Counted from the first letter of the stretch, positions 282 through 31,242 are shown. The stretch is 64,000 nucleotides of DNA from a virus (IMGVR_UViG_3300021399_003033:1-64000), one strand, 5' to 3'. The notes: generated from the sequence alone by a model not told the origin. Translations and numbers: made by a program.

Positions 282-512
282 ATGAGAAAAATAGATGATA
301 GAAAAATAGAAAAAATTATATGTGATGGAAGAGAATATAAAGGGAAAAAACTTTACCTTTTATATCCTTGGAGTAACAATGAATCTCATCCACTTTATTG
401 GTATGGATATACATTTATAGGAATGACAGATGGATGGATTATATTTAATCAAGAAAAATATAATGAAGCAATAAAAATGTTGGAGGAATATGAATGGATA
501 AAGTGGATTTAA
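282..512 (+). CDS. Hypothetical protein (76 aa)
   Basis: ORF immediately downstream of the promoter, overlapping the gyrB start. Confidence 0.55.
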   Translation: MRKIDDRKIEKIICDGREYKGKKLYLLYPWSNNESHPLYWYGYTFIGMTDGWIIFNQEKYNEAIKMLEEYEWIKWI

Positions 513-2407
513 ATTATGGCGTAAAAGACATAAAAACACTTGAAGGCATCGAAGCAATACGTCTTCGTCCAGGTATGTATATTGGTTCAACTGGACCCGA
601 AGGAGTAAAGCAAATTACTCTTGAAATTATATCAAACGCAGTAGACGAATATTTAAATGGATATTGTTCAAGTTGTAGTATTTATGTAGGTGAAGATGAT
701 GATATTACAATTATAGACAATGGAAGAGGAATTCCATTTGGAAAAGCCAAAGATGGCTCAGAAACATTGGAAAATATCTTTACCAAACTTCATACTGGAG
801 CTAAATTCGATAGTTCGGGAAAAACTGGATATAATACTTCGGGTGGTATGAATGGTGTTGGTGCTAAAGCAACTAATGCTCTTTCATATTATTTTAATGT
901 AAGTTCAGTTAGAAATGGTAAAGAAGCAATTATTACATTTAAGCAAGGTAAAAAACAATATTTTGAAGTGAGAAAATGGGATAATAAAGAACATACTCAT
1001 GGAACAAAAATTGATTTTATGCCAGATCCAGAAATTTTTAAGGAAGGAATTACTCTTGATTATAATGATTTAAGAAAACAACTTCAAGAGTTAGCTTATT
1101 TATCTCCTGGATTAGTTTTCCATTTTAAATACAAGAATAAGGATATGGAAGATATAACTTCTAATAGAGGTATTCTTGATTATATTGATGATTTAAATAA
1201 AAATAAAGAAGTTTTAACTTCAGTTTTTTATGCAGAAAATACAGAAGATAGAATTGGCGTTAAAGTTGCTATGAGTTATAATTCAACTTATAGCGATACT
1301 TATAAATTATATACAAATTCTATTCCAAATACAGGTGGTACTCATTTAACAGGATTTAGAACTGCTTTAACACAAACTGTTAATGAATATGCAAGAGATA
1401 ATAAATTTTTAAAAGAAAAAGATGCAAATATTACTGGAGATGAATTAAAAGAAGGATTAACTCTAGTATTAAGTTTTATTATGCCAGATCCAGTTTTCTC
1501 TGGACAGACAAAGGAAGTTTTATCCAGTAGTGAAGCAAGAACAGCAGTTCAAAGACTTGCATCTAAAGAATTAAAAAATTGGTTTGAAAGTCATCCAAAA
1601 GATATAAAGGCAATTATTGAAAAAGCATTACTTGCGCGCGCCGCTCGTGAGAAAGCAAAGAAAGCGAAAGAAACAGTGCGTAAGCAAGATACAAAGAAGA
1701 GAACTGTTTTACCAGGAACTCTTGCAGATGCTAGTTCAAAAAAGCGCTCTGAATGCGAAGTATTTATTGTTGAGGGAAAATCTGCGGCCGGTAGTACTAA
1801 GGAAGCCCGCAATCGAAATACTCAGGCAGTACTTCCCGTTAGAGGTAAGATTCTTAATGTTTTAAAAACAGATCTTCATAAAGCTATGCAGAACCAAGAA
1901 ATCAGTTCTATGATTGATGCTTTTGGATTAGAAGTAAAAGATGGTAAAATCATTGTAGATGAATCTAAACTTCGTTATGGCAAGATTATTATTACCGCAG
2001 ATGCTGATGTAGATGGAAGCCATATTCGCGTTCTTTTCCTTACTTTTATCTGGAAATTTGCACCAGAATTAATTACTAAAGGCTATATTTATGCGGCGGT
2101 TCCTCCACTTTATAAAGTAACAGTAGGTCAAAATATTACTTATTTAAAAGATGATGCTGCACTTGAGGCATATAGAAAAACAGCTAAGAAATCTTTTGAT
2201 CTGGGTCGTATGAAGGGATTAGGCGAAATGGATCCACACGAAATGGCTGAAACTGTTATGAATCCAGAAACAAGAACTCTTAAACAAATTACAATGGATG
2301 ATATAACTGAAGTCGCTAAAACTTTTATGGGACTAATGGGCGAAGCTGTTGCACCTAGACGTGATTTTATTAGTCAAAATGCATGGAGAGCAAATGTCGA
2401 TATCTAA
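494..2407 (+). CDS. gyrB: Type IIA topoisomerase (DNA gyrase) subunit B, 637 aa
   Basis: IRLRPGMYIG, EIISNAVDE, DNGRGIP, GGMNGVG (GHKL ATPase); EGKSA, PVRGKILN, DADVDG (TOPRIM); KGLGEM. No in-frame TAG. Confidence 0.95.
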   Translation: MDKVDLNYGVKDIKTLEGIEAIRLRPGMYIGSTGPEGVKQITLEIISNAVDEYLNGYCSSCSIYVGEDDDITIIDNGRGIPFGKAKDGSETLENIFTKLHTGAKFDSSGKTGYNTSGGMNGVGAKATNALSYYFNVSSVRNGKEAIITFKQGKKQYFEVRKWDNKEHTHGTKIDFMPDPEIFKEGITLDYNDLRKQLQELAYLSPGLVFHFKYKNKDMEDITSNRGILDYIDDLNKNKEVLTSVFYAENTEDRIGVKVAMSYNSTYSDTYKLYTNSIPNTGGTHLTGFRTALTQTVNEYARDNKFLKEKDANITGDELKEGLTLVLSFIMPDPVFSGQTKEVLSSSEARTAVQRLASKELKNWFESHPKDIKAIIEKALLARAAREKAKKAKETVRKQDTKKRTVLPGTLADASSKKRSECEVFIVEGKSAAGSTKEARNRNTQAVLPVRGKILNVLKTDLHKAMQNQEISSMIDAFGLEVKDGKIIVDESKLRYGKIIITADADVDGSHIRVLFLTFIWKFAPELITKGYIYAAVPPLYKVTVGQNITYLKDDAALEAYRKTAKKSFDLGRMKGLGEMDPHEMAETVMNPETRTLKQITMDDITEVAKTFMGLMGEAVAPRRDFISQNAWRANVDI

Positions 2408-2627
2408 AGAAGAAAATATTACTCAAATTATAGATGGAATTAAACTATCTACTTTTTCTCCAAAAGAAGGAGAAACAATATTTATAACAGTAGATTCAAA
2501 TGAACTTGATTTATATACAAGACAAAAAATTTTTGAAGCAATTAATCAATTATTTCCATCACATAATATATGCCTTAAAGAAAAAGGTATAACTTTAGAA
2601 TCTCAAATGGAGGATGATTTAAAGTGA
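2394..2627 (+). CDS. Hypothetical protein (77 aa)
   Basis: ATG at 2394 overlaps the gyrB end; its stop overlaps the GTG of the next gene. Confidence 0.55.
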   Translation: MSISKEENITQIIDGIKLSTFSPKEGETIFITVDSNELDLYTRQKIFEAINQLFPSHNICLKEKGITLESQMEDDLK

Positions 2628-3130
2628 TTATATATACAGATGGAAGTGCAAATCCAAATCCTGGACCTGGTGGATATGGTATTGTAATACTTGATAATGA
2701 TGAAAATTTATTATATAGTATATCAAGAAGATTTAAATATACAACAAATAATGAGATGGAATTAAAAGCAATATTAACAGCTTTTATTCTTTATGGAACA
2801 AAAAATAAAGAAGATATTTCTACAATTTATACCGATTCAGAATATTCAAGAAAAACATTTACAGAATGGATGTTTAATTGGGCAAAAAATGATTGGTTAA
2901 ATTCTAAAAAGAAGACTCCAGAAAATATTAATATTATAACAGATTTTTATTAGATGTGGAATGAAGGCTATCGAATTAATATTGAAAGAGTTCAAGGTCA
3001 TTCTAATCATAAATGGAATGATTTAGCAGATTCTCTTGCTGGAGGAACTGGAAAAATTATTATAGATAAAGGTTTTAGTGAATTATTAGAAAATCGAATT
3101 AATATATTACAAAAAGAAGGATTGTTATGA
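2624..3130 (+). CDS. rnhA: Ribonuclease HI, 168 aa (one TAG=Gln at 2951-2953)
   Basis: YTDGSA, TNNEMEL, IYTDS. The C-terminal motif ERVQGHSNHKWNDLADSLA (last catalytic Asp) lies downstream of the TAG, and the TGA at 3128-3130 overlaps the next ATG (ATGA). Confidence 0.9.
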
Positions 3131-3471
3131 ATAAAAACTGTCCTAATTGTGGTGCCCCATATGATGTTGGCTTAAATAAGTGTCCATATTGTGGAACATC
3201 ATATTTCGACATGAGTGCTATTGATTTTGAAAATGGAGAACCTTTCTATTTAAAAATTAAAATGAATAATATAATTATTACTCAACTTGTTAAACCTGTA
3301 TTAAATGATATGATAATAGAATATGAAAATACTTATATTACAGGAGGTTGTAGTAATACAACGATAGCAGCTTATAATACAGAACCACGAGCAATAACAA
3401 ATATAAATTTTGAAGCTATACCAGATAAAAAAAATAATAATACGTTAGTAATGATAAAAAAGGAAAAATAA
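3127..3471 (+). CDS. Zinc-ribbon protein (114 aa)
   Basis: CPNCG-x9-CPYCG at the N-terminus. Confidence 0.65.
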   Translation: MNKNCPNCGAPYDVGLNKCPYCGTSYFDMSAIDFENGEPFYLKIKMNNIIITQLVKPVLNDMIIEYENTYITGGCSNTTIAAYNTEPRAITNINFEAIPDKKNNNTLVMIKKEK

Positions 3472-5844
3472 ATGGAAAATATAATTCAAACACCGATTAT
3501 ACCAGAAGTTGAACAAAGCTTTCTTGATTATAGTCTAAGTGTTATTACTGATAGAGCATTACCTTCTGCGGAAGATGGGCTCAAGCCAGTAGCAAGACGA
3601 ATCCTTTATGATATGTTCGATAAAGGATATATGAATAATAAGAAATTTGTTAAGTGCGCGCAGCCTGTTGGTGATACAATGGGTAGATTTCATCCGCATG
3701 GTGATTCTAGTATTTACGGAGCATTGGTGTGGTTATCTCAACCTTGGAATATGAGATACCCACTTATTGATTTCCATGGAAATAATGGATCTCGCGATGG
3801 TGATGAGCCGGCCGCATATAGATATACAGAATGTAAACTTTCTAAAGCTGGTGAAGAAATGCTGGCTGATATAAAGAAAGATACAATAGATTGGATGAAT
3901 GCTTATACTGATGAAGAGCAAGAACCAGTTTATCTTCCAGGTAAAATTCCAAATCTTTTAGTCAATGGAACAACTGGTATTGCTGTTGGTATGGCTTGTT
4001 CTTTTGCACCTCATAATTTAAAAGAAATTATGGATGCAGCAATTCATGTTCTTTTATATCCTGAATGTGATATTAAAGAATTGCTTGAAATTGTAACTGG
4101 TCCTGACTTTCCTACTGGAGGTTTGCTTATTAATAAAGATGAATTAACTACAGCTTATCTCACAGGAAAAGGAAGAGCAAGAGTTAGAGGCGAATATCAT
4201 ATTGAATCTGATAAAAATGGAGATACAATAGTATTTGATAGTATTCCATATAAAGTATCAAAAGATAATTTAACTATTGAATTAGATAAGCTTTGTGAAG
4301 CAGGTGAGCTTAATGGCGTAACAACTATTAGAGATGAAACTAATGCTCAAGGTGTTAGATTTGTAATTGAGCTTGCTAAAGGTGTTTCAGCAGAACCAAT
4401 TATTAAAAAGATTTATGCTAAAACAAAATTAGAAGATACATATAGTTTTAATCAAGTCGCTCTTGTAGATAAAAAACCAAGACTACTTAATTTAAAGCAA
4501 CTTCTTGTAAATTATATTGAGCATCAAAGAGATGTTTTAATTCGTAAATCTAAATTTGAATATGCAAAAGCTGAAGCAAGAGCACATATTCTGCAAGGCT
4601 TATTAAAAGCACTTGAAGATATTGATAATATTATTCAATTAATTAAGAAATCAGAAAGTGCAGCAAAGGCAAAAGAAAACTTAATTTCTAAATATACTTT
4701 TACAGAACCACAAGCAAAAGCAATTTTGGATATGAAATTAAGTAAATTAGCAAATCTTGAAAAAATAGAAATTCAAAATGAATATAATGAAAAAATTGCT
4801 GAAATGGTAACTTTATCAGCAATTATTAAAGATCCTACTCCAGCTTTAACAAATCTTTTTGATGAAATTAAGCAAAAATTTGGAGATGAGAGAAGAACAA
4901 AAATTACTCAAGTTTCTGAATCTAAAGAAGAAAAAGAAATTGAATTTATTGAACCAGAAAAATGTGTTGTCGTGATGAGTGAAGATGGATTAATTAAAAG
5001 AATTCCTTCTTCTAGTTTTAGAACACAGCATAGAAATGGTAAAGGCGTTAAAACTCTTGGAGATATTACTTCTGCTGTAATAAAAACAAATACGATTGAT
5101 TCTTTAATGGTATTTACAAATAAAGGAAAAATGTATCGTATTTTAGTTAATGATATTCCAGTAGGAACAAATGCAACAAAAGGACAGAGTATTAAGTCTT
5201 TAATTGCAATGGATACGAATGAAGAAGCAACTTTAATTTATTCTATTTATAGAGATACAAATGCTAAATATATTTTATTTGTAACTAAAAATGGTGTTAT
5301 TAAAAAGACTTCTTTAGATGAATATACAAAGACTAAGAAAAAGACAGGAATTGCGGCGATTGGTCTCAAGGAAGGAGATACTCTAGCTTCAGTGGGACTT
5401 TGTTCTGATGAAGATTTGATTCTTCTTACTCATGAAGGTATGGGAATTAAAATTAGTTTAAAAGAAATTCCTACTTCTTCAAGAACTGCAATGGGTATTA
5501 AGGGTATTACTCTTAAAGAAGATGATTATGTGGTTGCGGCCTTGCCTGTGAGACACACAACAGACCAGCTTGCAATCTTCGCAGAGTCGGGTCTCGGCAA
5601 GAAAATTAAGTTAGAAGAACTTCCTGTACAGAAGCGCGCAGGAAAAGGATTAATGGTTTATAAACCAACATCTTCTTCTGGAAAAATTGTTTGTGGTACA
5701 TTAGTAGAAGATTCTGATATGATTCTTCTTATTGGCCCTCTTAATTCAATATGTATTTCCGCAAAAGATATTCCTCTTTTATCTAGACCTTCTCTTGGAA
5801 ATATCATGATGAAAGGTGTTATAAATTCTGTTACTAAAGTATAA
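3472..5844 (+). CDS. gyrA: DNA gyrase subunit A, 790 aa
   Basis: DGLKPVARR, FHPHGDS, AAYRYTE (catalytic Tyr), and C-terminal beta-pinwheel repeats with GyrA-box-like QHRNGKG and QKRAGKG. No TAG. Confidence 0.93.
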   Translation: MENIIQTPIIPEVEQSFLDYSLSVITDRALPSAEDGLKPVARRILYDMFDKGYMNNKKFVKCAQPVGDTMGRFHPHGDSSIYGALVWLSQPWNMRYPLIDFHGNNGSRDGDEPAAYRYTECKLSKAGEEMLADIKKDTIDWMNAYTDEEQEPVYLPGKIPNLLVNGTTGIAVGMACSFAPHNLKEIMDAAIHVLLYPECDIKELLEIVTGPDFPTGGLLINKDELTTAYLTGKGRARVRGEYHIESDKNGDTIVFDSIPYKVSKDNLTIELDKLCEAGELNGVTTIRDETNAQGVRFVIELAKGVSAEPIIKKIYAKTKLEDTYSFNQVALVDKKPRLLNLKQLLVNYIEHQRDVLIRKSKFEYAKAEARAHILQGLLKALEDIDNIIQLIKKSESAAKAKENLISKYTFTEPQAKAILDMKLSKLANLEKIEIQNEYNEKIAEMVTLSAIIKDPTPALTNLFDEIKQKFGDERRTKITQVSESKEEKEIEFIEPEKCVVVMSEDGLIKRIPSSSFRTQHRNGKGVKTLGDITSAVIKTNTIDSLMVFTNKGKMYRILVNDIPVGTNATKGQSIKSLIAMDTNEEATLIYSIYRDTNAKYILFVTKNGVIKKTSLDEYTKTKKKTGIAAIGLKEGDTLASVGLCSDEDLILLTHEGMGIKISLKEIPTSSRTAMGIKGITLKEDDYVVAALPVRHTTDQLAIFAESGLGKKIKLEELPVQKRAGKGLMVYKPTSSSGKIVCGTLVEDSDMILLIGPLNSICISAKDIPLLSRPSLGNIMMKGVINSVTKV

Positions 5845-5846
5845 TT

Positions 5847-5931: not shown

Positions 5932-7884
5932 ATGACAAAATCAGAAGAAAAAATTAGACAATTAATTGATTTGTTAAATTCTACTACTGCACTATATGAT
6001 AGTGGACATACTATTCTTACAGATGAAGAATGGGATGAAAAATATTTTGAATTACAAAAATTAGAAAAAGAAACTGGTATTATTTTTAAAGATTCTCCCA
6101 CGCAACAAATTAATTATAGTACAGTAACTGCTTTAAAAAAAATTGAACATAATCATCCAATGCTTTCATTAGATAAAACAAAAGATTTGGCCGAAATAAA
6201 AGCTTTTCTTAGTAAGAAAGATTTTATTGCAATGGCTAAAATGGATGGTTTAACTTGTTCTTTAACTTATGAAAATGGAAAATTAGTTCGAGCAGAAACA
6301 AGAGGTAATGGTACTATTGGTGAAGATATTCTTCACAATGCAGAAGTAATTCCTTCTATTCCAAAGCGTATTAATTATAAAGATCAGGTCATTATTGACG
6401 GAGAAATTATTTGTACATATTCTGATTTTGAAACATTCTCAACAGAATATAAAAATCCTCGTAATTTTGCTTCTGGTAGTATTAGATTACTTAATTCAAA
6501 AGAATGTGAAAAACGAAAATTAAAATTTATTGTTTGGGATATTATTAAGCCATTTAATAATATATCTAATGAAATTATTGTTCAATTAGCTAAAGCAAAA
6601 ACATTAGGTTTTACCATATGTCCCTTTGATTTTGATGATGAAATTGAAAATCTTGTTGAAAAGATAAAAAAAGAATGTCAAGAATTATCTTATCCAATAG
6701 ATGGAATTGTATTTAAATTTAGAGATTTATCTTTAAGAGAAAAATTAGGATATACATCCCATCATTTTAAAAATGCTATTGCTTATAAATTTTATGATGA
6801 AATTTATGAAACAAGATTAAAAAGAATTAGTTGGACGATGGGTAGAACAGGAGTTTTAACTCCAGTGGCAGTTTTTGATCCAATAGATATGGATGGTTCT
6901 ATTGTTGAAAGAGCTAGTTTACATAATGTTTCTGTAATGAGAGAAATTCTTGGCGATTGCGCATATGTGGGTGAACATTTGCAAGTATATAAAGCAAATA
7001 TGATTATTCCACAAATTGCTTCAGCTGGACCTCATTATGACTATGGATATGTTGTTTCTCATGGTGGTGTTTCTGCAAATGATTCTCCAGAGTATTGTCC
7101 CATATGTTGCGGAATAGTTAGTTATAAAGATAATAATGGTGTTGTGACGCTTGAATGCGACAACCCTTATTGCGAAGGTAAAATTCTCAATAGACTTGAA
7201 CATTTTGCCAGTAAAAAAGGATTGGATATAAAAGGGCTGTCTCTGGCGACATTTGAAAAATTACTTGATTGGAAATGGATTGAATCTTTAATAGATATTT
7301 TTAAATTAAAAGAACATCGAGAGGAATGGATATCTAAACCAGGATTTGGTGTTGCTTCTGTTGATAAAATTTTAAATTCTATTGAAGAAAGTAAAAATAC
7401 TACATTAGATGCTTTTATTGCATCTTTAGGAATCCCTCTTATTGGAAATACAGTATCAAAAGAATTAATTAAATATTTTAAAACATATGATGAATTTAAA
7501 GATGCTGTAAATGATGATACATATCATTTTTCCATAATAGATGGATTTGGTCCAGAAATGGATAACGAATTAAAATATTTTGATTATTCTGAAGCTGATG
7601 AAATATATCATTTATTAAATATAAAAATTCCAGAAGAAAAAGAAGAAAATTTAAAACTAAAAGATTTAACTTTTGTTATTACAGGAAAATTAAAAAAATA
7701 TAAAAATCGTGCGGAACTTATTGATGTGATCTCTCAAGCTGGAGGTAAAGTTGCTAGTTCTGTTAGCGGTAAAACTAATTATTTAATTAATAATGATATT
7801 ACCTCTAATTCTTCAAAGAATTTAACTGCTAAAAAGCTGGGTGTTAAGATTATAACAGAAGAAGATTTTGAAAAAATATTTTGA
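5932..7884 (+). CDS. ligA: NAD-dependent DNA ligase, 650 aa
   Basis: HPMLSLDK, KMDG adenylation motif, TRGNG, NPRNFASGS, DGIV, AIAYKF, GRTG, C4 zinc finger, HhH repeats and a C-terminal BRCT (FVITG...VSGKTNYLI). No TAG. Confidence 0.95.
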   Translation: MTKSEEKIRQLIDLLNSTTALYDSGHTILTDEEWDEKYFELQKLEKETGIIFKDSPTQQINYSTVTALKKIEHNHPMLSLDKTKDLAEIKAFLSKKDFIAMAKMDGLTCSLTYENGKLVRAETRGNGTIGEDILHNAEVIPSIPKRINYKDQVIIDGEIICTYSDFETFSTEYKNPRNFASGSIRLLNSKECEKRKLKFIVWDIIKPFNNISNEIIVQLAKAKTLGFTICPFDFDDEIENLVEKIKKECQELSYPIDGIVFKFRDLSLREKLGYTSHHFKNAIAYKFYDEIYETRLKRISWTMGRTGVLTPVAVFDPIDMDGSIVERASLHNVSVMREILGDCAYVGEHLQVYKANMIIPQIASAGPHYDYGYVVSHGGVSANDSPEYCPICCGIVSYKDNNGVVTLECDNPYCEGKILNRLEHFASKKGLDIKGLSLATFEKLLDWKWIESLIDIFKLKEHREEWISKPGFGVASVDKILNSIEESKNTTLDAFIASLGIPLIGNTVSKELIKYFKTYDEFKDAVNDDTYHFSIIDGFGPEMDNELKYFDYSEADEIYHLLNIKIPEEKEENLKLKDLTFVITGKLKKYKNRAELIDVISQAGGKVASSVSGKTNYLINNDITSNSSKNLTAKKLGVKIITEEDFEKIF

Positions 7885-7922: not shown

Positions 7923-8126
7923 ATGAAAACTAAAGAAATCAAAGAACTTGCTAAAAAAATTGCAAAAGAAGAATTTATATTAAGACATAGTGAAGATGAA
8001 AATAAAATTGCTGAAGCAAAAGGTAACATTCTTTATTATTCTAATTTAATAACTTCAATAGAAGACATGGCTGCAATTGATGATAAAGTAGTAAAAATAT
8101 TAAATAAAATGGAAGCAAGTATTTGA
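7923..8126 (+). CDS. Hypothetical protein (67 aa)
   Basis: ORF preceded by AAGGA and a promoter. Confidence 0.6.
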   Translation: MKTKEIKELAKKIAKEEFILRHSEDENKIAEAKGNILYYSNLITSIEDMAAIDDKVVKILNKMEASI

Positions 8127-8151
8127 CAAAAAAACAAAATTTTTGTATATT
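8123..8151 (+). promoter_or_regulatory. sigmaA-type promoter
   Basis: TTGACA-17-TATATT. Confidence 0.65.
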
Positions 8152-8204: not shown

Positions 8205-8477
8205 ATGGCAATGAAGGAAAATAGCCGTAAGGTTCTTGAGTATTTAAAGCAGATTAATGGAGCAAATGTTACTGCACAGGATGTAGCTGATGTATTAGGT
8301 CTTGAAAAGAGAAGCGTTGATGGTATTTTTACCTCTGCAATTCAGAGAAAGGGTCTTGGAGTTCGTACACCTGCAGAGGTTGAGCTTGAGGATGGATCTC
8401 ATAAGCAGGTTAAGTTCTTATCTCTTACCCCGGCAGGAATGGCCTTTGATCCAGATGCTGAAGAGGATGCTGAGTAA
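8205..8477 (+). CDS. Small winged-helix DNA-binding protein (90 aa)
   Basis: KVLEYLK...VTAQDVADVLGLEKRSVDGIF helix-turn-helix, wing LSLTPAG, acidic tail; strong AAGGAG RBS. Confidence 0.65.
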   Translation: MAMKENSRKVLEYLKQINGANVTAQDVADVLGLEKRSVDGIFTSAIQRKGLGVRTPAEVELEDGSHKQVKFLSLTPAGMAFDPDAEEDAE

Positions 8478-8503: not shown

Positions 8504-8536
8504 ATGGGGTAAGTAAAACTTACCCCTTATTTTTTA
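8504..8536 (+). terminator. Intrinsic terminator
   Basis: GGGGTAAG-TAAAA-CTTACCCC followed by TTATTTTTT. Confidence 0.75.
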
Positions 8537-8539
8537 AAT

Positions 8540-9544
8540 ATGGTTAATATTATTATAGGAATTGTATTTGGAATCTTAATTACATTAATTATTTTTTATC
8601 CTAAATATAAGAAAAAAGTTTAGTTAGATGAAGATAAAGTTAAATAGAATATAAAATTAATAAAAGAAATTGATATAAAACAAAATGAATTAAATACATT
8701 AGATCTTTTAAATTCAGAAAAAGAAAAACGTAATTAGGATTTATAGAAAAGAATTGTAGATGCTACATAGCAATTAACTTAGATTGATAATTAGGCAGCT
8801 GAAGCCGCTGAAAATTATAAGAAAATTCACATAGATAAAGCAGAAGCTGAAATTAAATTAAAAGAAAAAAATTTAGATTTAGAATTTTAGAATTATAAAA
8901 AATTTATTAATGAATCTAAAGATGAAGCAATAAAAGAATATTTAATTACTTTAAGTGATTTAGTAAAATATTATTAGGATAAAATTACTAAATATTCTGT
9001 TTCTACTGCGGAAGCCGCTAAAAAACTCACAGAGTTGCAATCAAAAGTAGATGCAGCGGTCGCCGCAAACAAACGTCAATTTGAAGAAGAAAATCAAAAA
9101 GATTTTTATCGTTTAATTATAGCTGAAGAAGATTTAAAAGAAATTTCTAAAATTAGAGAAATTATTCCTTATTTACGAAATCCAGAACCATTAAATAAAG
9201 TTATATATAAATATTATTATGAAAAACCTTATAATGATTTAATTGGTCGAGTATTAGGTTCAAAGATTCATACAGGCATTTATAAAATAACTAATTTAAA
9301 TAATGGTTTATGTTATGTTGGACAAGCAGTTAATGTCGCTGATAGATGGCGACAACATATTAAACGAGGTCTGGGCGCAGAAGCTCCTACGCAAAATAAA
9401 TTATATCCAGCAATGTTAAAAGAAGGAGTAGAAAATTTTTCTTTTGAATTAATTGAAGATTGTGATAGAATTAAGTTAAATGAACGAGAAGATTATTGGC
9501 AAGAATATTTTAAAGCAAAGGAGTTTGGTTATAGTATAAAATGA
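8540..9544 (+). CDS. Membrane-anchored coiled-coil protein with a C-terminal GIY-YIG nuclease, 334 aa (9 TAG=Gln)
   Basis: MVNIIIGIVFGILITLIIFYP transmembrane segment and a K/E-rich coiled coil, open in frame to the 9035-9544 ORF with only TAG interruptions; GIYKITNLNNGLCYVGQA...RWRQH...E-x-YW motifs. Confidence 0.8.
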
Positions 9545-9839: not shown

Positions 9840-10007
9840 ATGAAAAAAATTGAAATTACTTTTAAAGATGGTGGATTAAGAACTTGGGATTCTGAAGATT
9901 ATACAGATTATATTTTTCAAAAGCCAAATTTTTTTATTGTAATTAATGGTAGTTAGTGGGTTGGTATTTATAATCTTGATGAAATAAAGGAAATTATTGT
10001 AAAATGA
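9840..10007 (+). CDS. Hypothetical protein (55 aa, one TAG=Gln)
   Basis: MKKIEITFKDGGLRTWDSEDY...; its TGA overlaps the ATG at 10004 (ATGA). Confidence 0.6.
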
Positions 10008-10950: not shown

Positions 10951-11316
10951 ATGACTAAGAAAGAAAAATTTATTGAATTAGTAGAAACAGGATTTAAAGC
11001 GATTAATATTGATTTAAATGATCCAGATCAAGCAGATGCAATGGCTTATTGGGAAGCTTTTAAGGGGAAAAAAGAAATTGAAAAGCCCGAATTTACCGAT
11101 AATGGTAAGTTGATTCTGAAATATCTTCAGGATCATGCTACTGATATTCCAATGGCAAAAGCAAAGGACATTGGAGAAGGATTGTTTGTTTCTTCAAGAG
11201 TTGTATCTGGAGCAATTAGAAAACTTGTAACAGATGGTTATGTGGAGAAGATTGGACAGGATCCAGTAGTATATGCAATTACAGAAAAAGGTAAAGAAGT
11301 AAAATTTGAAAATTAA
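10951..11316 (+). CDS. Winged-helix DNA-binding protein (121 aa)
   Basis: LILKYLQ...KAKDIGEGLFVSSRVVSGAIRKLVTDGYVEKIGQDPVVYAITEKG is a MarR-like wHTH pattern. Confidence 0.7.
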   Translation: MTKKEKFIELVETGFKAINIDLNDPDQADAMAYWEAFKGKKEIEKPEFTDNGKLILKYLQDHATDIPMAKAKDIGEGLFVSSRVVSGAIRKLVTDGYVEKIGQDPVVYAITEKGKEVKFEN

Positions 11317-20881: not shown

Positions 20882-23800
20882 ATGAGAAAATATTTTAATA
20901 ATCATGCTCATACAATTTATTCTAATGTTCGTCTTTTGGATGCAATAAATCGTCCAAAAGATTTGATTAAAAAAGCTCATGAATTAGGTATGAGCGGTAT
21001 TGCGATTACAGATCATGAAATTCTTTCTGCACATGTAGAAGCTTTAAAAGTAGCAGAAGAAATTTATAAAGAAGATCCAGATTTTCTTGTTGCTTTAGGA
21101 AATGAAATTTATTTAACAGATACAAGAGATAATGGACAAAAATATTATCATTTTATTTTAATTGCAAAAGATGCTATTGGTCATAAAGCACTTCGTGAAT
21201 TAAGTTCTCATTCTTGGTTTTGTTCATATATGGACAGGGGACTTGAAAGAGTACCAACTTTAAAATCTGAATTAGATGAAATTGTTCATAAATATCCAGG
21301 TCATTTAATTGCAACTACAGCTTGTATTGGAGGAGAGTTAGGAACAAATCTTTTAATGCGAGCAAAAGCATTAGCGATAGATGATAATTATAATGCAGAT
21401 TTGTATTTTATACAAGCAAAAGTATTTTTAAATTATTGTAAGAATCTATTTGGTGATGATTTTTATATTGAATGTGCTCCATCATCAAATGAAGATCAAA
21501 TTGCAGTAAATAAGCAATTAAAAGAATTATCAGAATTATTTAATATTAAAATGTGTATTGGAACAGATGCACATTATTTAACAAAAGAAGATAGACCTGT
21601 TCATAAAGCATATTTAAATTCAAAAGGTGGAGAAAGAGAAGTTGATTCATTTTATGAATTTACATATTTAATGAATAGTGATGAAGTAGAAGAGTTATTG
21701 AGTTATTCTTTTGATAAAGATTTTATATCTGAAATTTTAGATAATAGTCTTGAAATTCAAAATAAAATTACAAAATATTCTCTTTTTCATAAACAAGATA
21801 TTCCTAGAGTAGAGGTTGAAGATTATCCTAAGAAAGCGATGGGAGAGGCTTCAGAAAAATATCCTATTCTTAATTCTATGCTTTCATCTGATGATAAATA
21901 TGAAAGATACTGGATAAATGGTTGCATTAATAAATTAAAAGATATTAATAAATTCAATCAAGAATATCTTAGTCGTCTTGAAGAGGAAGCTGATGTAAAA
22001 AGAGTTATAGGTGAAAAACTTGAAACTAATATGTTCTGTTATCCTGTAACTCTCCAGCATTATATTGATTTAATCTGGGATTGTGGTTCAATGGTTGGTG
22101 CAGGAAGAGGTTCTTCTTGTGCGGCATTAAATCACTATTTATTAGGTGTTACTCAGCTAGATCCAATTGAATGGGATTTACCTTTCTTTAGATATTTAAA
22201 TAGAGAACGTATTGAGCTTGGTGATATTGATATTGATATTTGTCCAAGTAAACGTCCATTAATTTTAAATAAAATTAAAGAAGAAAGAAAAGCATATTTT
22301 AATGAAGATGTTGCAGAATGGGCAAAAGAAAATCTTGGATGTACATTAGTTGCAACTTTTGGTACTGAGGGTACAAAAAGTGCAATTTTAACAGCTTGTC
22401 GTGGATATAGAAGTGAAGATTATCCAGACGGAATTGATGTTGATGAAGCACAGTTTATGTCTTCAATGATTCCACAAGAAAGAGGATTTTTATGGAGCAT
22501 TCATGATGTAGTTTATGGAAATCCAGAAAAAGGACGAAATCCAGTTCAATCTTTTATTAGAGAAGTAAATAATTACCCAGGTTTATTAGATATTATTGTA
22601 TCTATTGAAGGATTAATTAACCATAGAGGTAGTCATGCATCTGGAGTTATTTTATTTGATGGAGATCCATTTGAACATTGTGCATTTATGAAAACTCCAA
22701 AAGGAGAAATTACAACTCAGTTTGATCTTCATGATGATGAGTATTTAGGATTAACAAAATATGATTTTCTTGTAACTGAAGTTCAGGATAAATTAGTTCA
22801 AGCGATTCAACTTCTTCAAAAAGATGGTCAGATTGAAGCTGATTTATCTTTAAGAGAAGTATATGATAAATATTTTCATCCAAATGTTCTTCCGTTAAAG
22901 GATAAAAGAATTTGGGATGCATTAGGAAATGTATCTGTATTAAATACATTTCAGTTTGATTCTGCGGTTGGTTCTCAGGTTGCGAAAATGTTGAAACCGC
23001 AAAATGTTCTTGAAATGGCCGATGCAAATGGTCTTATGAGATTAAGTGGTGAAGATGGCGAAGAGAGACCGATGAATAAATATTATAGATTTAAAAATAA
23101 TATAAATCTATGGTATAAAGAAATGGATGATTTTGGTCTTACAAAAGAAGAACAAAAAGCTATTGAACCTTATTTTAAATCTTCATATGGAGTACCTCCG
23201 AGTCAAGAGCAGCTAATGAGAATGTTAATGGATGAAAACATTTGCGGCTTCAGCTTAGGAGAAGCGAATGCGGCCAGAAAAGTTGTTGGAAAGAAACAGA
23301 TGAATAAGATCCCAGAACTTAGAGAAAAAGTTCTGAAGAGTGCAAAATCTGAGAAATTGGGCCAGTATATATGGAAATATGGAGCAGGTCCGCAGATGGG
23401 TTATTCTTTTAGTGTAATTCATGCATTAGCTTATTCATTTATTGGTGTTCAGACTTTATATATAGCAACAAATTGGAATCCGATTTATTGGAATACAGCT
23501 TGTTTGATTGTTAATAGTGGAGCAACAGATCCAGATAATGGTGGTCAAACAGATTATTCAAAAATTGCGAAAGCAATGGGAGATATAATTAATGCTGGTA
23601 TTAATTTAAGTCTTGTAAATATTAATCAATCAGGTTATGGTTTTGAGCCTGATGCAAAAAATAATAGAATTTTATATGGAATGAAAGCAATGCTAAATGT
23701 TGGTGATGATGTAATTGATGCAACAATTAAAAATCGTCCATATATTTCTATTAAAGATTATTATAATAAAGTTCATCCAAATAAACAGGCTATGATTTCA

Positions 23801-24772
23801 TTAATCAAAGGTGGAGCTTTTGATGATATGATGGAAAGAAAAATGGCAATGGCTTGGTTTATTTGGGAAACATGTGATAAAAAGAAGCGTATTACTCTTC
23901 AAAATATGGGAGGATTAATTAAATATGGTTTACTTCCAGAAAAAAATGAAGAAGAAGTAATGGCAAGAAGAATCTATGAATTTAATAGATATTTAAAAGC
24001 TATTTGTAAAAATGGTGAAGGATATATATTAGATAATAGAGCATTAAATTTTATTCATGAAATTGAAGCAGATAGTTTGTTAGAGAATAAAAATAATGAA
24101 TGGTATATTTCAGCAAAAAATTGGGATAAAAAAGTTTATCAAAAATGGATGGATGTATTTAGAGCATGGATTGCTGAAAATAAAGATGAAATATTAAATA
24201 CATTAAATTCAAAGATTTTTTATGATGATTGGAGTAAATATGCTAAAGGAACAATCTCTGCTTGGGAGATGGAAGCTTTATGCTTTTATTACCACGAACA
24301 TGAACTCGCTCATGTGGATAGTTCAAGATATGGCTTTGTTAATTTTATGGATCTTCCAGAAACCCCAGTAATTGATAAAGTATATAAGAAAAATGGTAAA
24401 GAAATAAAAATATTTAAACTTAATTTAATTTGCGGAACTTGTATTGCAAAGAATAAAGTCAAGAGTACTGTAAGTCTTTTAACTACAACTGGAGTAGTTA
24501 CAGTTAAGTTCAGAAAAGAATATTTTAATCTCTTTGACAAACAGATTTCTGAAAAAAATCCAGATGGAACTAAGACAGTAAAAGAAAAATCTTGGTTTAA
24601 TCGTGGAAGTATGATTATCGTTCAGGGTATTCGTTCAGATGATAATTTCGTAACAAAAAAGTACGCAAACTCTGAAATGCATCAACTTTATAAGATAGAT
24701 GAAATTCTTCCAGATGGCAGTTTAAAAATTAGGAATGAAAGATACCAGGGAGAAGCAGAAGATGATGAATGA
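20882..24772 (+). CDS. dnaE: DNA polymerase III alpha subunit (family C), 1296 aa
   Basis: PHP domain (HAHT..S, AITDHE), GRGS, catalytic DIDID, HASGV, KYDFL, YSFSVIHALAY and a C-terminal OB fold. No TAG among about 35 Gln codons. Confidence 0.95.
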   Translation: MRKYFNNHAHTIYSNVRLLDAINRPKDLIKKAHELGMSGIAITDHEILSAHVEALKVAEEIYKEDPDFLVALGNEIYLTDTRDNGQKYYHFILIAKDAIGHKALRELSSHSWFCSYMDRGLERVPTLKSELDEIVHKYPGHLIATTACIGGELGTNLLMRAKALAIDDNYNADLYFIQAKVFLNYCKNLFGDDFYIECAPSSNEDQIAVNKQLKELSELFNIKMCIGTDAHYLTKEDRPVHKAYLNSKGGEREVDSFYEFTYLMNSDEVEELLSYSFDKDFISEILDNSLEIQNKITKYSLFHKQDIPRVEVEDYPKKAMGEASEKYPILNSMLSSDDKYERYWINGCINKLKDINKFNQEYLSRLEEEADVKRVIGEKLETNMFCYPVTLQHYIDLIWDCGSMVGAGRGSSCAALNHYLLGVTQLDPIEWDLPFFRYLNRERIELGDIDIDICPSKRPLILNKIKEERKAYFNEDVAEWAKENLGCTLVATFGTEGTKSAILTACRGYRSEDYPDGIDVDEAQFMSSMIPQERGFLWSIHDVVYGNPEKGRNPVQSFIREVNNYPGLLDIIVSIEGLINHRGSHASGVILFDGDPFEHCAFMKTPKGEITTQFDLHDDEYLGLTKYDFLVTEVQDKLVQAIQLLQKDGQIEADLSLREVYDKYFHPNVLPLKDKRIWDALGNVSVLNTFQFDSAVGSQVAKMLKPQNVLEMADANGLMRLSGEDGEERPMNKYYRFKNNINLWYKEMDDFGLTKEEQKAIEPYFKSSYGVPPSQEQLMRMLMDENICGFSLGEANAARKVVGKKQMNKIPELREKVLKSAKSEKLGQYIWKYGAGPQMGYSFSVIHALAYSFIGVQTLYIATNWNPIYWNTACLIVNSGATDPDNGGQTDYSKIAKAMGDIINAGINLSLVNINQSGYGFEPDAKNNRILYGMKAMLNVGDDVIDATIKNRPYISIKDYYNKVHPNKQAMISLIKGGAFDDMMERKMAMAWFIWETCDKKKRITLQNMGGLIKYGLLPEKNEEEVMARRIYEFNRYLKAICKNGEGYILDNRALNFIHEIEADSLLENKNNEWYISAKNWDKKVYQKWMDVFRAWIAENKDEILNTLNSKIFYDDWSKYAKGTISAWEMEALCFYYHEHELAHVDSSRYGFVNFMDLPETPVIDKVYKKNGKEIKIFKLNLICGTCIAKNKVKSTVSLLTTTGVVTVKFRKEYFNLFDKQISEKNPDGTKTVKEKSWFNRGSMIIVQGIRSDDNFVTKKYANSEMHQLYKIDEILPDGSLKIRNERYQGEAEDDE

Positions 24773-25115
24773 TAAACAAATATGTTCAGTTTGCGGGAGG
24801 GAACTTCCGCAAACTGATTTTTGGAAAATAAAAGAACCATTTATAGATTGGCATAAAATAAAATATCATAGATATAATATTTGTAAAGAATGTTGTTATG
24901 AAACTAAATTATTAGATGAATCTAACAATGATAATATAAAATTATATTGTGAATTTTTTAATATTCCTTTTATATTAAAAGAATGGGAAATATTAAAAAA
25001 AAGATATTATCCTAAAAGACATATTTTTGGAAGATATATGGCTAAAATGAACTTAGCAGGATATCGACCATATTAGTATAAAGATTCGGAGGAATTGAAT
25101 AAATTCTATGAATAA
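24762..25115 (+). CDS. Zn-finger hypothetical protein (117 aa, one TAG=Gln)
   Basis: CSVC...CKECC; overlaps the dnaE end and the gmk start. Confidence 0.55.
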
Positions 25116-25695
25116 TTATAAAATTCTTGCAATTATTGGAGAGGCCGGAACTGGTAAAGATACTATCATGAAAGAGGTTCTTAAAAAGAACCCCAATATT
25201 CATGAAATTATTTCTTGTACTACACGTCCTCCAAGAGAAAAGGAAAAAAATGGTATTAATTATCATTTTTTAACGCATGAAGAATTTACAAATAAAATTT
25301 TAAATAATGAAATGCTTGAAGCAACAGTTTTTAATGATTGGTGTTATGGAACAAGTTATGATTCATTAGATACAAATAAAGTTAATATTGGAGTTTTTAA
25401 TCCAGCAGGAATAGAAGCTTTAATGGAACATAAAAATATTTTTATTGTGTGTTATTATGTGCGGGCCGCAGACAAACAGCGTCTTTTACGCCAACTTAAT
25501 CGTGAGGAAAATCCTGATGTAAAAGAGATAATTAGACGCTTTTCCGCAGATAATTTAGATTTTTCAGAGCTTCAATTTCATTATAATGAAATTGAGAATA
25601 ACACACTACAAGATCTAGATAAAAATATTGAGATTATAAATAGCGCTTGTTTACGTCTTTAGAATCTATTGGACCAAGAAAGACAAAGTATTTAA
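25108..25695 (+). CDS. gmk: Guanylate kinase (195 aa under code 15; TAG 11 codons before the TAA)
   Basis: GEAGTGKDT, TTRPPREKE, GINYHF, YGTS. Confidence 0.88.
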
Positions 25696-25766
25696 TTTAA
25701 AATTTATATATAATAGATTTCTACATTAGAAATCCTTAAAATAATAATAATTAGGAGGAAATCTAT

Positions 25767-28004
25767 ATGATTTATGTAAAGAAGAGAGATGGACGTAGAG
25801 TTCCATTCGATGAGAAAAAAATTGAAAATGCTGTATTAGCAGCTTTTAAAGATGTGGATAAAGAAATTACTCCATATGCATAGGATAAAGCATATAATAT
25901 AGCAATGTATGTTCTTGGATATGCAGAAGAATAGTTAACAGAATTAGGAATTGAAGATATTCAAGATTTAGTCGAAAAAGGACTTATGGCGACAAAACGA
26001 AAAGATGTCGCTAAAGCGTATATTCTTTACAGAGATAAACGTAATAAAGAACGTGAAGGCAATATAGATTGGATGAAACTTATCTCTGAAAAACTTCAAG
26101 CAAAAAATGTTCAAAATCAAAATGCTAATGTTGATGAGCATTCTTTTGGAGGAAGAAAAGGGGAAGCTGATAATGTTTTAATGAGAGAAATTGCATTAAA
26201 TCATATTGGCATGTCTAAAAAAAGTAGAGATAATCATTTAAATAATCGTATCTATATTCATGATTTAGATGCATATGCAGTTGGTATGCATAACTGTTTG
26301 ACAATTCCTTTTGATGATTTGTTAGCTAATGGATTTAATACTCGTCAAACAGATATTCGTCCTGCAAACAGTGTAAATACAGCTTTTTAGCTTGTGGCAG
26401 TATTATTCCAGCTTCAAAGTTTACAACAGTTTGGAGGCGTTTCCGCAAGCCATTTAGATTGGACAATGGTTCCTTATGTAAGAAAAAGTTTTTATAAACA
26501 TTTTAAAGATGGAATAAAATATATAGATAAAAATGGTGAATCTAATAGCACTCGTTTTAATTCAGATTTACCAATTGATGCATATCAATATACATAGCAT
26601 CAAGGAGAAGCCTATAAATATGCTATGGATATGACTATTAAAGAAGTTAATCAAGCAGTAGAAGGTATGTATCATAACTTAAATACGTTACAATCAAGGT
26701 CTGGAAATTAGCTTCCATTTACTTCAATTAATTATGGAACATGCACTTTGCCAGAAGGAAGAATAGTGATAAAAGCTTTACTTGATGGTTCTATTAAAGG
26801 AGTTGGAAAACTTCATAAAACACCTATTTTCCCTTGTGGTATTTTTCAATGTATGAAAGGAGTCAACCGTGATCCAGGGGATCCCAATTACGATTTATTT
26901 AGGTTAGCCCTTAAATCCACAGCTAAAAGATTATATCCTAATTATGCTAATGTTGACTGGAGTGGCAATGCTGGATATGATCGCAACGATCCGAAGACAT
27001 ATTTCAGCACCATGGGATGCAGAACAGCCAACGGATGGGATATCAATGGTTTCGGTCAACTGAAAGATGGACGCGGTAATATCTGTCCAGTAACTATTAT
27101 TCTTCCTACTCTTGCAATGGAAGCTAAAGAAAAAGTAGACAATGGACATCATTCATACTCTTCATATGCTTATCAAGCGGAATTTTTAAAATTGCTTGAT
27201 GAAGCTATTCATGATGCGAAAGATACTCTAATTGAAAGATTTAATTGGATTTGTTCTCAAGATCCAGCTTCCGCAAAATTTATGTGGGAAAATAATACTA
27301 TGGCAGGGTATATTCCAGAAGAAGGTCCTTATAGTGCTTTGCGCCATGGTACTCTTGCATTAGGTCAATTAGGTCTCGCAGAAGCGCTTCAAATTCTTAT
27401 TGGTACAGACCATACTACAGAAGAAGGTATGGAATTTGCTAAGAGAATTGAGCAGTTGTTTAAAGACAGATGTGCTGAATTTAAACAGGAATATAAACTT
27501 AATTTCGGTGTGTACTATACTCCAGCCGAAAACCTTTGCTATACCGCTTTAAAGAAATTTAGAGAAAAATATGGTGTAATACATAATATTAGCGATAAAG
27601 AATTCTTTACTAATTCAATGCATGTTCCAGTTTGGAAACAAATCAGTCCTTTTGATAAAATTGATATTGAATCTCAATTAACAGGATATTCAAGCGCGGG
27701 CTGCATTACATATGTTGAACTTGAATCTACTGTTGGTAAAAATATAGATGCAATGGAAACATTAGTAAATTATGCTATGGATAAAGATATTCCATATTTT
27801 GCAATTAATGTTCCTTGCGATACTTGTCTTGAATGCGGATATACTGGTGAATTTAATAATACTTGTCCTGTTTGCGGCAGTGACCATATTCAGCAATTAA
27901 GACGTGTTACTGGTTATTTAACTGGCAATTATACAACTGCTTTTAATTATGGCAAGCAAGATGAAGTACATAATCGTGTAAAACATACAGGTTATATGGA
28001 ATAA
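25767..28004 (+). CDS. nrdD: Anaerobic (class III) ribonucleoside-triphosphate reductase with ATP-cone, 745 aa (5 TAG=Gln)
   Basis: VKKRDG ATP-cone; IYIHDLD; NTAF(TAG)LVAV; LNTLQSRSGN(TAG)LPFTSIN with TAG on the conserved Gln; MGCR; TPAE; CxxC...CxxC; RRVTGYL glycyl-radical loop. Confidence 0.95.
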
Positions 28005-28016
28005 GGAGGCGACCAC

Positions 28017-28496
28017 ATGAGATATGCAGGAATTATACCAAATGATTTCGCCGCAGCTCCTGGAGTATGTACTACATTTTTTGTTTAGGGTTGTCCAATA
28101 AAATGCCCTGGTTGTCATAACTCTGAAACTTGGGATTTTGAAGGCGGAAAAGAATTTAATGCAGAGGTTTTAAATAAATTAGAAGAAGATTTACTTGCTA
28201 ATGGAATTAATAGAACTCTTTGTATTATGGGAGGAGAACCTCTCTGTCAAGAAAATTTATTCTTAACAACTATGATTGTTACAGAAATGAAACATAGATT
28301 ACCAGATTTAAAAATTTGGATTTGGACTGGATATGAATATAAAGATATATTAGAAGAAGAATCTAATCCAAAAATTAAATATATTTTAGAAACTGTTAAT
28401 GGATTGGTTACTGGTCCTTTTATTCAATCTTTAAGAGATATTACTCTTCCAATGAGAGGTAGTAGTAATCAAGAGATTATTAATTTAAAAAATTGA
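28017..28496 (+). CDS. nrdG: Class III RNR activase (radical SAM), 159 aa (TAG=Gln at 28086)
   Basis: FFV(TAG)GCPIKCPGCHN matches the FxQGC-x3-C-x2-C motif; GGEP; GSSNQ. Confidence 0.92.
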
Positions 28497-28521
28497 CTTT
28501 TATTCTTTTATTTGATATAAT
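28493..28521 (+). promoter_or_regulatory. sigmaA-type promoter (extended -10)
   Basis: TTGACT-17-TATAAT with TG. Confidence 0.72.
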
Positions 28522-28555
28522 AAAATTATAAATAAAAAGAAATGTGAGGTATGTA

Positions 28556-29137: not shown

Positions 29138-29144
29138 AAAATAT

Positions 29145-29931: not shown

Positions 29932-29936
29932 AAATT

Positions 29937-30161
29937 ATGAGAATTTTACTTAATAATACTGAAACTTATAGAGTTGATACAGAAGAAGAAGCTAAGGCTC
30001 TTATCGAAGAAATGAAAGAAAATGCATCTGATTATATTGTTGATTCTTATTCATCTGTAAGAAAAGAAAAAAAGAAAAAGGGTGAAATTATTGCCGAGGG
30101 GTATCAAGTAAAGATTACAAAGAAATATTCTGATTTTTGGGTTATGGAGGAAGCTGAATAA
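29937..30161 (+). CDS. Hypothetical protein (74 aa)
   Basis: TAATG overlap with dut. Confidence 0.65.
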   Translation: MRILLNNTETYRVDTEEEAKALIEEMKENASDYIVDSYSSVRKEKKKKGEIIAEGYQVKITKKYSDFWVMEEAE

Positions 30162-30745
30162 TGAGTGCTTATTTCCAAAAGGTAAGTAATTGCGGCGATG
30201 CCGTTCTGCCAGTTCGCAAGACCCAGGCTTCAGCAGGATATGATTTTTTCGCAGCTGAAGATATTATAATTCCCCCATATGAAGATCTTTGTAATGAAAT
30301 GATTGGTGTTTTGCTTGACGAAAGCGAAAGTATTTTTGATGCAGTATCAGATGCTAAAGAAGCTATGACACTCGATCAAATCGCCGCTTTAACGAAGCGC
30401 GCGCAAGCAAAACCTACTTTGATTCCTACTGGAGTTAAATGTCATCTTGATCCAGACACTTTTCTTCAACTTTCAATTCGATCTTCTTCTCCTTTAAAAT
30501 ACTGGATTATCCTTGCTAATGGAGTTGGAATTATTGACGCAGATTATTACAATAATCCTGATAATGAAGGACATATATATTTTCAAGTAATTAATCTTTC
30601 TCCAATTCCCATTAAGATCAAGAAAGGTGATGCAATTGGTTAGGGAATTATTATGAACTATAATAAAGTTTATGATGATCATGCTGATCAATTAAGAGAA
30701 GGCGGTTTTGGTTCTACAGACTCCGCACCTGCATCTACAACATAA
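30161..30745 (+). CDS. dut: Trimeric dUTPase, 194 aa (TAG=Gln at 30641)
   Basis: SAGYDF, IPTG, RSS, GIIDADY; motif 4 GDAIG(TAG) has TAG on the conserved Gln and motif 5 REGGFGST lies downstream. Confidence 0.93.
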
Positions 30746-31242
30746 TGCGTAAATTGCTAGCCTTAGATTAGTCATCTAAAACTAGTGGATATGCAGTATT
30801 TTATGATAAAGAATTAAAATACTATGGTCATTTTACTTTTGAGGATGATGATTTAGGAGATCGGCTTTATAAAATTCGTAAAAAAGTAAATGAACTCATA
30901 GAAAAATATGAAATTAATGAAGTTGTTTTTGAAGATATTTAGTTACAAAATAATGTTGGCAATAATGTAAAAACATTTAAAGTTTTAGCAGAAGTATTTG
31001 GTGTTATTTATGAGTTAATAACAGAATTAAAATTACCTCATTAGGAAATTTTAGCTTCCACTTGGAAATCTGGTCTTGGGATAAAAGGACGAACTCGTCC
31101 AGATCAAAAAAGAAATGCTCAAAAATATGTGCTTAATACTTATAATATGAAAGCAACTCAAGATGAATGTGATGCTATTTGCATTGGAACTCATATTCTT
31201 TTAGGAAAAAAACAAATAGCAGATCATGACTGGTCAGATTAA
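30745..31242 (+). CDS. ruvC: RuvC-like Holliday junction resolvase, 165 aa (3 TAG=Gln; absent from the ORF track)
   Basis: LLALD(TAG)SSKTSGYAVF, VVFEDI and DECDAICIG supply the RuvC acidic tetrad; TAATG overlap with dut. Confidence 0.85.

Follow-up and report, generated by a model that had tools for sequence, protein, structure and literature searches.

Phages that reassign a stop codon concentrate the recoded stops in late and lysis genes, an arrangement that possibly delays translation of these genes (Borges et al., 10.1101/2021.08.26.457843; Yutin et al., PMC7886860). Recoding of replication genes was called 'variable', and in TGA-recoded Agate phages a 'group I intron endonuclease' gene was one of three preferentially recoded families (Borges et al., 10.1101/2021.08.26.457843). 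The usual picture of recoding is one of whole blocks, with early genes set apart from late ones. We analysed the viral DNA stretch IMGVR_UViG_3300021399_003033:1-64000 (64,000 nucleotides, hereafter called the window), in whose replication module the in-frame TAG codons, predicted to be read as glutamine, are distributed gene by gene. A first-pass annotation, made from the sequence of the window alone, had described this arrangement as a selective lock: the core replisome was said to be TAG-free, and every nuclease and every enzyme of deoxynucleotide (dNTP) supply to depend on TAG. Comparison with related loci supports a partition of TAG that is gene-specific, conserved and maintained by selection.

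TAG codons in the replication arm

The window, which has 30% G+C and two divergent arms, makes up the first 64 kb of one virus contig of 73,618 bp. The plus-strand arm (282-31835) carries genes for replication and nucleotide metabolism, namely gyrB, an RNase H gene, gyrA, ligA, a GIY-YIG gene and the genes of a Sak4-like annealase, a DnaB-like helicase, a primase, RecJ, a RecD-like helicase, a DnaE-type polymerase, Gmk, NrdD, NrdG, dUTPase and RuvC; most of these names are backed by Pfam, PHROGs and NCBIfam profiles. The late arm on the minus strand (31877-64000, continuing to 73586 on the contig) carries holin, tail and virion genes. Codons were counted under a translation of TAG as Gln, and CAA, CAG and TAG are together called Gln-type codons. 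TAG accounted for 41 of the 310 Gln-type codons in the plus-strand arm (0.13) but for 37% of those in the late arm (163/436; 0.37), where the structural genes contain 18-33 TAG each.

Within the replication arm, five large core genes are devoid of TAG: gyrB (494-2407; 637 aa, 15 Gln-type codons), gyrA (3472-5844; 790 aa), the NAD-dependent DNA ligase gene ligA (5932-7884), the gene of the RecD-like SF1 helicase (19034-20218) and dnaE (20882-24772; 1296 aa, 37 Gln encoded by 20 CAA + 17 CAG). The first-pass annotation had placed the TAG of dnaB and gmk at the extreme C-terminus, and we found the sole TAG of dnaB (within 13589-15654) at codon 513 of 514 and that of gmk (25108-25695) at codon 185 of 195, past the kinase domain (residues 5-174). 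The nuclease genes are different. The GIY-YIG gene (8540-9544) has 9 TAG in 18 Gln-type codons, the first at codon 28, and the gene of the RecJ-like exonuclease (17090-18859) has 9 in 21, the first at codon 36. In ruvC (within 30161-31242), TAG stands at codons 9, 66 and 100, codon 9 directly following the catalytic Asp8. The RNase H gene (2624-3130) has a single TAG at codon 110. The first TAG codons of ruvC and of the GIY-YIG gene are where the annotation had them stop under the host code, and a recount of all its per-gene numbers that could be checked gave the same values.

The other replication-arm genes with TAG encode the primase (15951-17054; one TAG at codon 185, before the Toprim domain at residues 249-302), the Sak4-like annealase of the AAA_24 family (12416-13414; codons 38 and 60), a protein of ThyX-like fold (10004-10888; codon 112), NrdD (five TAG) and NrdG (codon 24, just 5' of the Cys cluster), both within 25108-28496, and dUTPase (within 30161-31242; codon 161). 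All genes named in this and the preceding paragraph are on the plus strand.

TAG shares were heterogeneous among the genes of the replication arm (permutation p = 1.5e-4; p = 0.07 once the GIY-YIG gene and recJ were removed). For gyrB, gyrA, ligA, recD-like and dnaE, which together have 92 Gln-type codons, the probability of no TAG was 1.5e-7, and 4e-5 when the two richest genes were left out of the calculation; this set of five was picked post hoc in the window and then tested independently on relatives. The G+C content at third codon positions (GC3) did not explain the depletion, as it showed no correlation with TAG share among the replication-arm genes (rho 0.12, p 0.62). Four-fold degenerate sites, taken as independent, gave neutral expectations of ~0.5 for CAA, ~0.05 for CAG and 0.45-0.47 for TAG. 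The TAG shares of the GIY-YIG gene (0.50), recJ (0.43), ruvC (0.38) and the late arm (0.37) are near this neutral level, and those of the remaining replication-arm genes are far below it.

Conservation of the gradient in related loci

IMG/VR was scanned with DnaE and, separately, with GyrA, which yielded 118 related loci. We aligned the proteins of the window to these loci by tblastn and read the codon under each in-frame stop. In-frame TAG was present in 49 loci and in-frame TGA in 16, and the remainder had neither. TAG in relatives aligned with Q in 218 of 623 cases, followed by E and K, and TGA aligned with W and Y; as a control, in-frame TAA was met only 18 times. On these alignments, TAG is assigned to Gln and TGA to Trp in this family. 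A GyrA tree shows the code states interspersed, and along it TAG changed at least 8 times and TGA at least 5 times. Dereplication at 90% protein identity left 28 TAG-recoded and 10 TGA-recoded representative loci. For each gene, the observed share of recoded stops was compared with the mean share of its own locus (observed/expected, O/E).

We took the two gene classes of the first-pass annotation as an a-priori hypothesis and restricted this test to relatives with under 85% identity to the window. In 23 of 24 TAG-recoded loci, the class that had been called TAG-dependent was richer in TAG than its TAG-free counterpart (Mantel-Haenszel odds ratio 5.65), and in all 10 TGA-recoded loci it was richer in TGA (odds ratio 35.7). 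The split drawn from the window thus recurs in related genomes. It is steepest for the nucleases, with an odds ratio against the TAG-free class of 11 (57 for TGA), followed by 3.3 for the dNTP enzymes and 2.6 for primase and Sak4. The parallel between TAG and TGA lineages is a natural replicate that argues for selection.

Gene by gene, the relatives show a gradient. At its lower end, gyrase, ligase and DnaE are almost stop-free (O/E in TAG and TGA lineages, respectively: gyrA 0 and 0, gyrB 0.2 and 0, ligA 0.36 and 0; dnaE 0.24). In gyrA, none of 328 Gln-type codons was TAG across 16 TAG-recoded lineages, with 27.8 expected, and no TGA was found in 9 TGA lineages. DnaB (0.56), the RecD-like helicase (0.74) and YorF have somewhat more, and dNTP enzymes, primase (1.3) and Sak4 (0.67) more again. 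RNase H (2.1; 3.3 for TGA), the GIY-YIG gene (3.4; 4.2 for TGA), recJ (2.3) and ruvC (2.3) have most. Among the nucleotide-metabolism genes, the values were 2.7 for the ThyX-like gene, 1.9 for nrdG, 1.6 for gmk, 0.88 for nrdD and 0.25 for the dUTPase gene, which has few codons.

A lock is therefore not an apt description: the partition is graded, and primase, Sak4 and the RecD-like helicase have O/E near 1. A TAG-free core replisome is found in the window; among relatives, gyrA is TAG-free and gyrB and ligA are nearly so, but DnaE, DnaB and the RecD-like helicase are not in a few lineages. Only the four nucleases are strongly enriched (O/E 2.1-3.4), and the TAG that the RNase H gene has in the window is missing from the two closest relatives, L048 and L041. 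The dependence of every dNTP enzyme on TAG is a feature of the window that is not conserved, as the values for NrdD and dUTPase show.

The bias was retained at alignment columns with conserved Gln. There, TAG made up 0/117 codons in gyrA, 1/77 in gyrB and 10/241 in dnaE, compared with 12/33 in ruvC, 5/18 in nrdG, 18/70 in the GIY-YIG gene and 13/78 in recJ. The difference thus lies in synonymous codon choice and not in protein conservation. Between the window and the relative G001, moreover, gyrA, gyrB and ligA (48, 39 and 51% identity) are no more alike than recJ and ruvC (50 and 51%). Most TAG columns were found in one representative only, and the 85 TAGs of the GIY-YIG gene are spread over 60 distinct columns. 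We conclude that the load was gained many times independently.

Two large relatives read end to end agree with this picture. In G001 (139.6 kb), TAG makes up 16/32 Gln-type codons of the GIY-YIG gene and 13/32 of recJ, and in G004 (176.6 kb) 12/25 of the GIY-YIG gene; gyrA, gyrB and ligA have none in either genome. Across the window, G001 and G004, the rank correlation of per-gene TAG share was positive and weak (rho 0.43, 0.40 and 0.23; n = 18-19), the pooled tests being the more powerful. In lightly recoded lineages, the first genes of the module to bear stops are recJ, ruvC, nrdG and gmk (L003, L004 and L026) or recJ (L010 and L023, where recJ is TAG-rich and the neighbouring genes are TAG-free). 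In the TGA-recoded L014, ruvC was the only aligned gene with TGA (four codons).

Promoters and suppressor tRNA

A promoter-like motif of early type, TTGATT-17-TATAAT, occurs exactly at 247, 10885, 13463, 18970 and 20823 and with one mismatch at 28493; 12 matches were found versus 5.0 expected. The site at 247-275 lies on the plus strand ahead of a small open reading frame (ORF) and gyrB. Further consensus-like sites are at 8123 (8123-8151) and 13523, and a generic sigma-70 scan gave no excess over shuffled sequences (97 vs 96; 110 vs 123). The first gene after each promoter had been described as TAG-free. This was so in the window (7/7) but did not extend to relatives, in which TAG was present in the phrog_4680 gene (p4680) in 9/22 loci, in the recD-like gene in 4/10 and in the small gene u8205 in 6/17. 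In the window, u8205 (8205-8477) and p4680, which precedes dnaB within 13589-15654, are TAG-free plus-strand genes.

A late-promoter motif, GGNCA-N6-ATTAW, was found before structural operons on the minus strand; it occurred nowhere on the plus strand and before none of the nuclease genes. In G001, a tRNA-Sup(CUA) gene lies inside an array of 23 tRNAs. An exact TTGATT-17-TATAAT is found ~455 nt upstream of this gene, and a second one precedes the array as a whole. Because no late motif precedes the nuclease genes and an early-type motif lies upstream of the G001 array, a relative and motif matches together suggest that a delay would be set by the accumulation of the tRNA and not by a separate late transcription programme.

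A proposed translational delay and its alternatives

We propose that the partition reflects a graded translational delay on shared early-type promoters, caused by the time that a phage suppressor tRNA takes to accumulate; on balance, we find this mildly probable. In a standard-code host, a phage suppressor tRNA that reads TAG as Gln would have to accumulate after infection. Products needed complete before that time would be kept stop-free by purifying selection, which would apply to gyrase, ligase and DnaE and, to a lesser degree, to DnaB, the RecD-like helicase and YorF. Where a product is needed or tolerated only later, its gene would be free to drift to mutational equilibrium, at which TAG is about as common as CAA. 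The genes of the GIY-YIG protein, RecJ, RuvC and RNase H, although in the same operons, would then behave like late genes, and before the switch their mRNAs would yield truncated, inactive products. The dNTP enzymes, primase and annealase would be intermediate in a lineage-dependent way, making the delay graded and not all-or-none. We infer both the timing and the benefit of such a delay from the codon pattern, its conservation and the TGA parallel.

A more specific version is a fine-grained translational timer within early operons, where transcripts of one promoter class would yield gyrase, ligase and polymerase immediately, a conserved set of nucleases (the membrane-anchored GIY-YIG protein, RecJ, RuvC and RNase H) would be delayed until a co-transcribed suppressor tRNA has accumulated, and the same gene set would have been recruited independently in TAG and TGA lineages. 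This version is plausible, though somewhat short of an even chance.

Several observations weigh against a delay of this kind. Neither the window nor the 73.6-kb contig contains a tRNA gene. This says little, because the contig is a fragment: besides the tRNAs, no terminase, portal or capsid gene was identified in its 73.6 kb, and contigs of relatives in IMG/VR extend to 127-190 kb. The record ends inside the late arm and roughly represents half of a 130-190 kb genome. The suppressor and its promoter come from a relative that is 48-69% identical, and a CUA suppressor tRNA was absent from the 92%-complete relative G004. The relatives taken as standard-code are those whose replication-module locus is stop-free, a state judged from these loci only. 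The p values treat codons as independent, and the lineages share ancestry.

Core genes are also heavily recoded in a few lineages, with 8-9 TAG in DnaE of L028, 10 in the RecD-like helicase of L020 (and 3 in that of L001) and 7 in DnaB of L039. In these lineages, replication would wait for the switch, or the switch would come very early. Primase has 6-8 TAG in L005, L020, L033 and L039 and none in other relatives. Finally, gene order is conserved and the loaded genes recJ, ruvC, nrdD-nrdG and Sak4 stand at operon ends, so that gene identity and operon-distal position are inseparable.

The recoded stops might instead serve as a safety device. The stops would block dangerous proteins from leaky transcripts wherever the suppressor is absent, for example during lysogeny, in a carrier state or in non-permissive cells, lytic timing being secondary. 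The enriched genes are exactly the four nucleases, and such a logic was proposed for lysis genes and prophages (Borges et al., 10.1101/2021.08.26.457843). Among the relatives, the G002 contig is classed as a provirus by IMG/VR, and the replication module of the window resembles that of SPbeta, a temperate phage. However, profile searches with the proteins of the 73.6-kb fragment identified no integrase or repressor, and NrdG, the ThyX-like protein and primase are not toxic and yet are loaded in many lineages. As the main function of the pattern, a safety device is unlikely; it would be compatible with, and not exclusive of, a delay by suppressor tRNA.

If read-through were incomplete, each TAG would cut the yield, and the load could tune dosage: low-copy nucleases would tolerate or benefit from this and abundant replisome proteins would not. 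The load is indeed graded and is lowest in the longest proteins, those of dnaE, gyrA, gyrB and ligA. But the late structural genes, which have the highest copy need, have 18-33 TAG each, from which it follows that read-through is efficient after the switch. We consider dosage tuning improbable.

A historical explanation would hold that gyrase-ligase and polymerase genes were often exchanged among relatives of differing code, or with hosts, so that only stop-free alleles spread while resident nuclease genes drifted. The module is mosaic: G004 is nearer to the window in gyrA and gyrB (70 and 74% identity) and G001 in dnaE and nrdD (64 and 69%). The interleaving of code states on the GyrA tree would also fit. 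Against exchange, the GIY-YIG gene lies beside ligA in the same syntenic block and is nevertheless the most loaded gene everywhere, the absence of TAG from gyrA across 16 lineages needs continuing selection, and TAG arises in dnaE at short distance (L001 and L002). We regard history as the cause only with strong doubt. An origin in chance or in composition, through Gln content, GC3 or a handful of outlying genes, to which the heterogeneity of the window without the GIY-YIG gene and recJ would point, is very improbable, as all tests were normalised to Gln-type codons, GC3 was uncorrelated and the pattern is repeated in independent lineages and with a different stop codon.

Gene identities and codon usage

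The protein encoded at 8540-9544 has a PF01541 GIY-YIG domain at residues 246-326 and matches TIGR01453 with 65.9 bits (cut-off 56). An N-terminal transmembrane helix (residues 2-20) is followed by a long Lys/Glu/Gln-rich coiled coil and then by the nuclease domain. The gene is full-length, free-standing and syntenic in standard, TAG and TGA relatives. An intron-encoded homing endonuclease was considered; against it stand this arrangement in all three codes and the lack of a group I intron, as the window had no Rfam match at gathering thresholds. A shorter gene starting past the TAG cluster was rejected, since relatives of all three codes conserve the N-terminal part at the protein level. Judged by its predicted domains, the product could be a membrane-tethered nuclease acting on incoming or host DNA. 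A terminator-like hairpin lies directly 5' of the gene (8506-8526, plus strand). In L051 and L092, the gene is interrupted by ~1.2 kb. In G004, a TAG-free 250-aa GIY-YIG ORF separates two pieces of gyrB, and a 226-aa ORF separates two pieces of dnaB (129693-132773 and 114361-116993); both cases resemble insertions of introns or mobile elements into early genes.

The ThyX-like designation of 10004-10888 was borne out at the level of the fold and not beyond it. The model had a predicted local distance difference test score (pLDDT) of 76, and all top Foldseek hits were ThyX (E = 4e-5; template modelling score 0.40-0.56). No Pfam or NCBIfam family matched, and the family consensus is EHR-x8-S, whereas ThyX has the signature RHR...S. 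The gene that had been called SSB-like has no match to an SSB OB-fold profile: 10951-11316 has weak winged-helix hits and 11331-12290 belongs to the YorF family. Both are TAG-free plus-strand genes. Sequence searches of the PDB gave nothing for the YorF-family and ThyX-like proteins.

In some genes that are TAG-free or TAG-poor, CAG exceeds CAA: the YorF-family gene has 0 CAA and 9 CAG, Sak4 1 and 10, u8205 0 and 4, and the late-arm gene 33225-34055 3 and 14. The 20 CAA and 17 CAG of dnaE stand against only ~5% CAG predicted from four-fold sites. At DnaE codon 838 (23393-23395), 27 of 37 relatives have CAG and only 7 have CAA, even though third positions are AT-rich; L001, L002 and L028 have TAG there. 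Near the tRNA array of G001 and G004, many TAG-free genes have CAG well above CAA. This neighbourhood in relatives (L145, L146 and L156; G001 and G004) encodes Major Vault Protein-like proteins of 816-826 aa, a DUF2828/DUF7788 protein and an RNA-ligase-like protein, all TAG-free and CAG-rich. A preference for CAG may mark genes adapted to the host tRNA pool. Two minus-strand genes of the late arm are TAG-free, 33225-34055 (0/17), near the holin gene, and 49518-51620 (0/16). The former is depleted in relatives as well (O/E 0.26), but the latter is not depleted in G001 (9/28).

Comparison with known systems

Metagenomes of bovine and sheep gut from 12 studies contain DNA nearly identical to the window, and six metatranscriptome runs contain small shares of it. 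At 38-40% identity, the DnaE of the window matches the polymerases of Bacillus phage SPbeta and of large Enterococcus phages. The DnaE-type polymerase YorL of SPbeta has 38-39% identity, and a YorF-family gene is common to both. The yorL gene, the one SPbeta gene compared in this respect, has no in-frame stop (a single tblastn piece over 99% of DnaE).

The Agate phages occur in animal guts and have genomes of ~127-154 kb and codes 11, 15 and 4 side by side in one clade. Contigs of the relatives reach 127-190 kb, TAG, TGA and stop-free states are interleaved among them, and the phage of the window occurs in bovine and sheep gut; membership in the Agate clade is likely. As in the phages of Borges et al., the reassigned stop abounds in structural and lysis genes, and early genes are compatible with the standard code. 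The same combination of a standard-code host and a phage suppressor tRNA is proposed here. Unlike in that study, the split is followed here for single genes of the replication module, and it is seen in TAG- and TGA-recoding lineages alike. Stop avoidance was shown there for integrases only and is found here for gyrase, ligase and DnaE. The GIY-YIG gene is probably the endonuclease family of Borges et al., but here it is free-standing, membrane-anchored and syntenic and does not lie inside an intron. RecJ, RuvC and RNase H join it as preferentially recoded genes.

In crAss-like phages (Yutin et al. 2021, PMC7886860), reassignment likewise affects mostly late genes and codes switch at short phylogenetic distance. 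They differ in being podovirus-like, in their Bacteroidetes hosts and in that recoding occurs in blocks and is not interleaved in early operons. The phAss-1/'Phassvirus' group (PMC10607447) is alike in genome size (~135 kb), DnaE-type polymerase and tRNA arrays including tRNA-Sup(CUA). TAG occurs there in virion genes and 'several DNA-processing enzymes', and recoding of NrdG and dUTPase differs between close relatives. That group is from the human gut, is distantly related and was described without an analysis of gene classes; Enterococcus phage EF1, part of the same comparison (PMC10607447), has a 40% match to the DnaE of the window.

If the pattern reflects timing, proteins of the same transcripts would be staggered without extra promoters or regulators, the DNA-cutting enzymes would be the class consistently held back, and stop-free genes would point to what the phage needs first. 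Annotation pipelines that apply one code per genome or block would truncate these nuclease genes. New relative to the described systems are the stop avoidance of gyrase, ligase and DnaE, the class of recoded nucleases formed by RecJ, RuvC and RNase H alongside the endonuclease gene, and the recurrence of both patterns whether TAG or TGA is the recoded stop.

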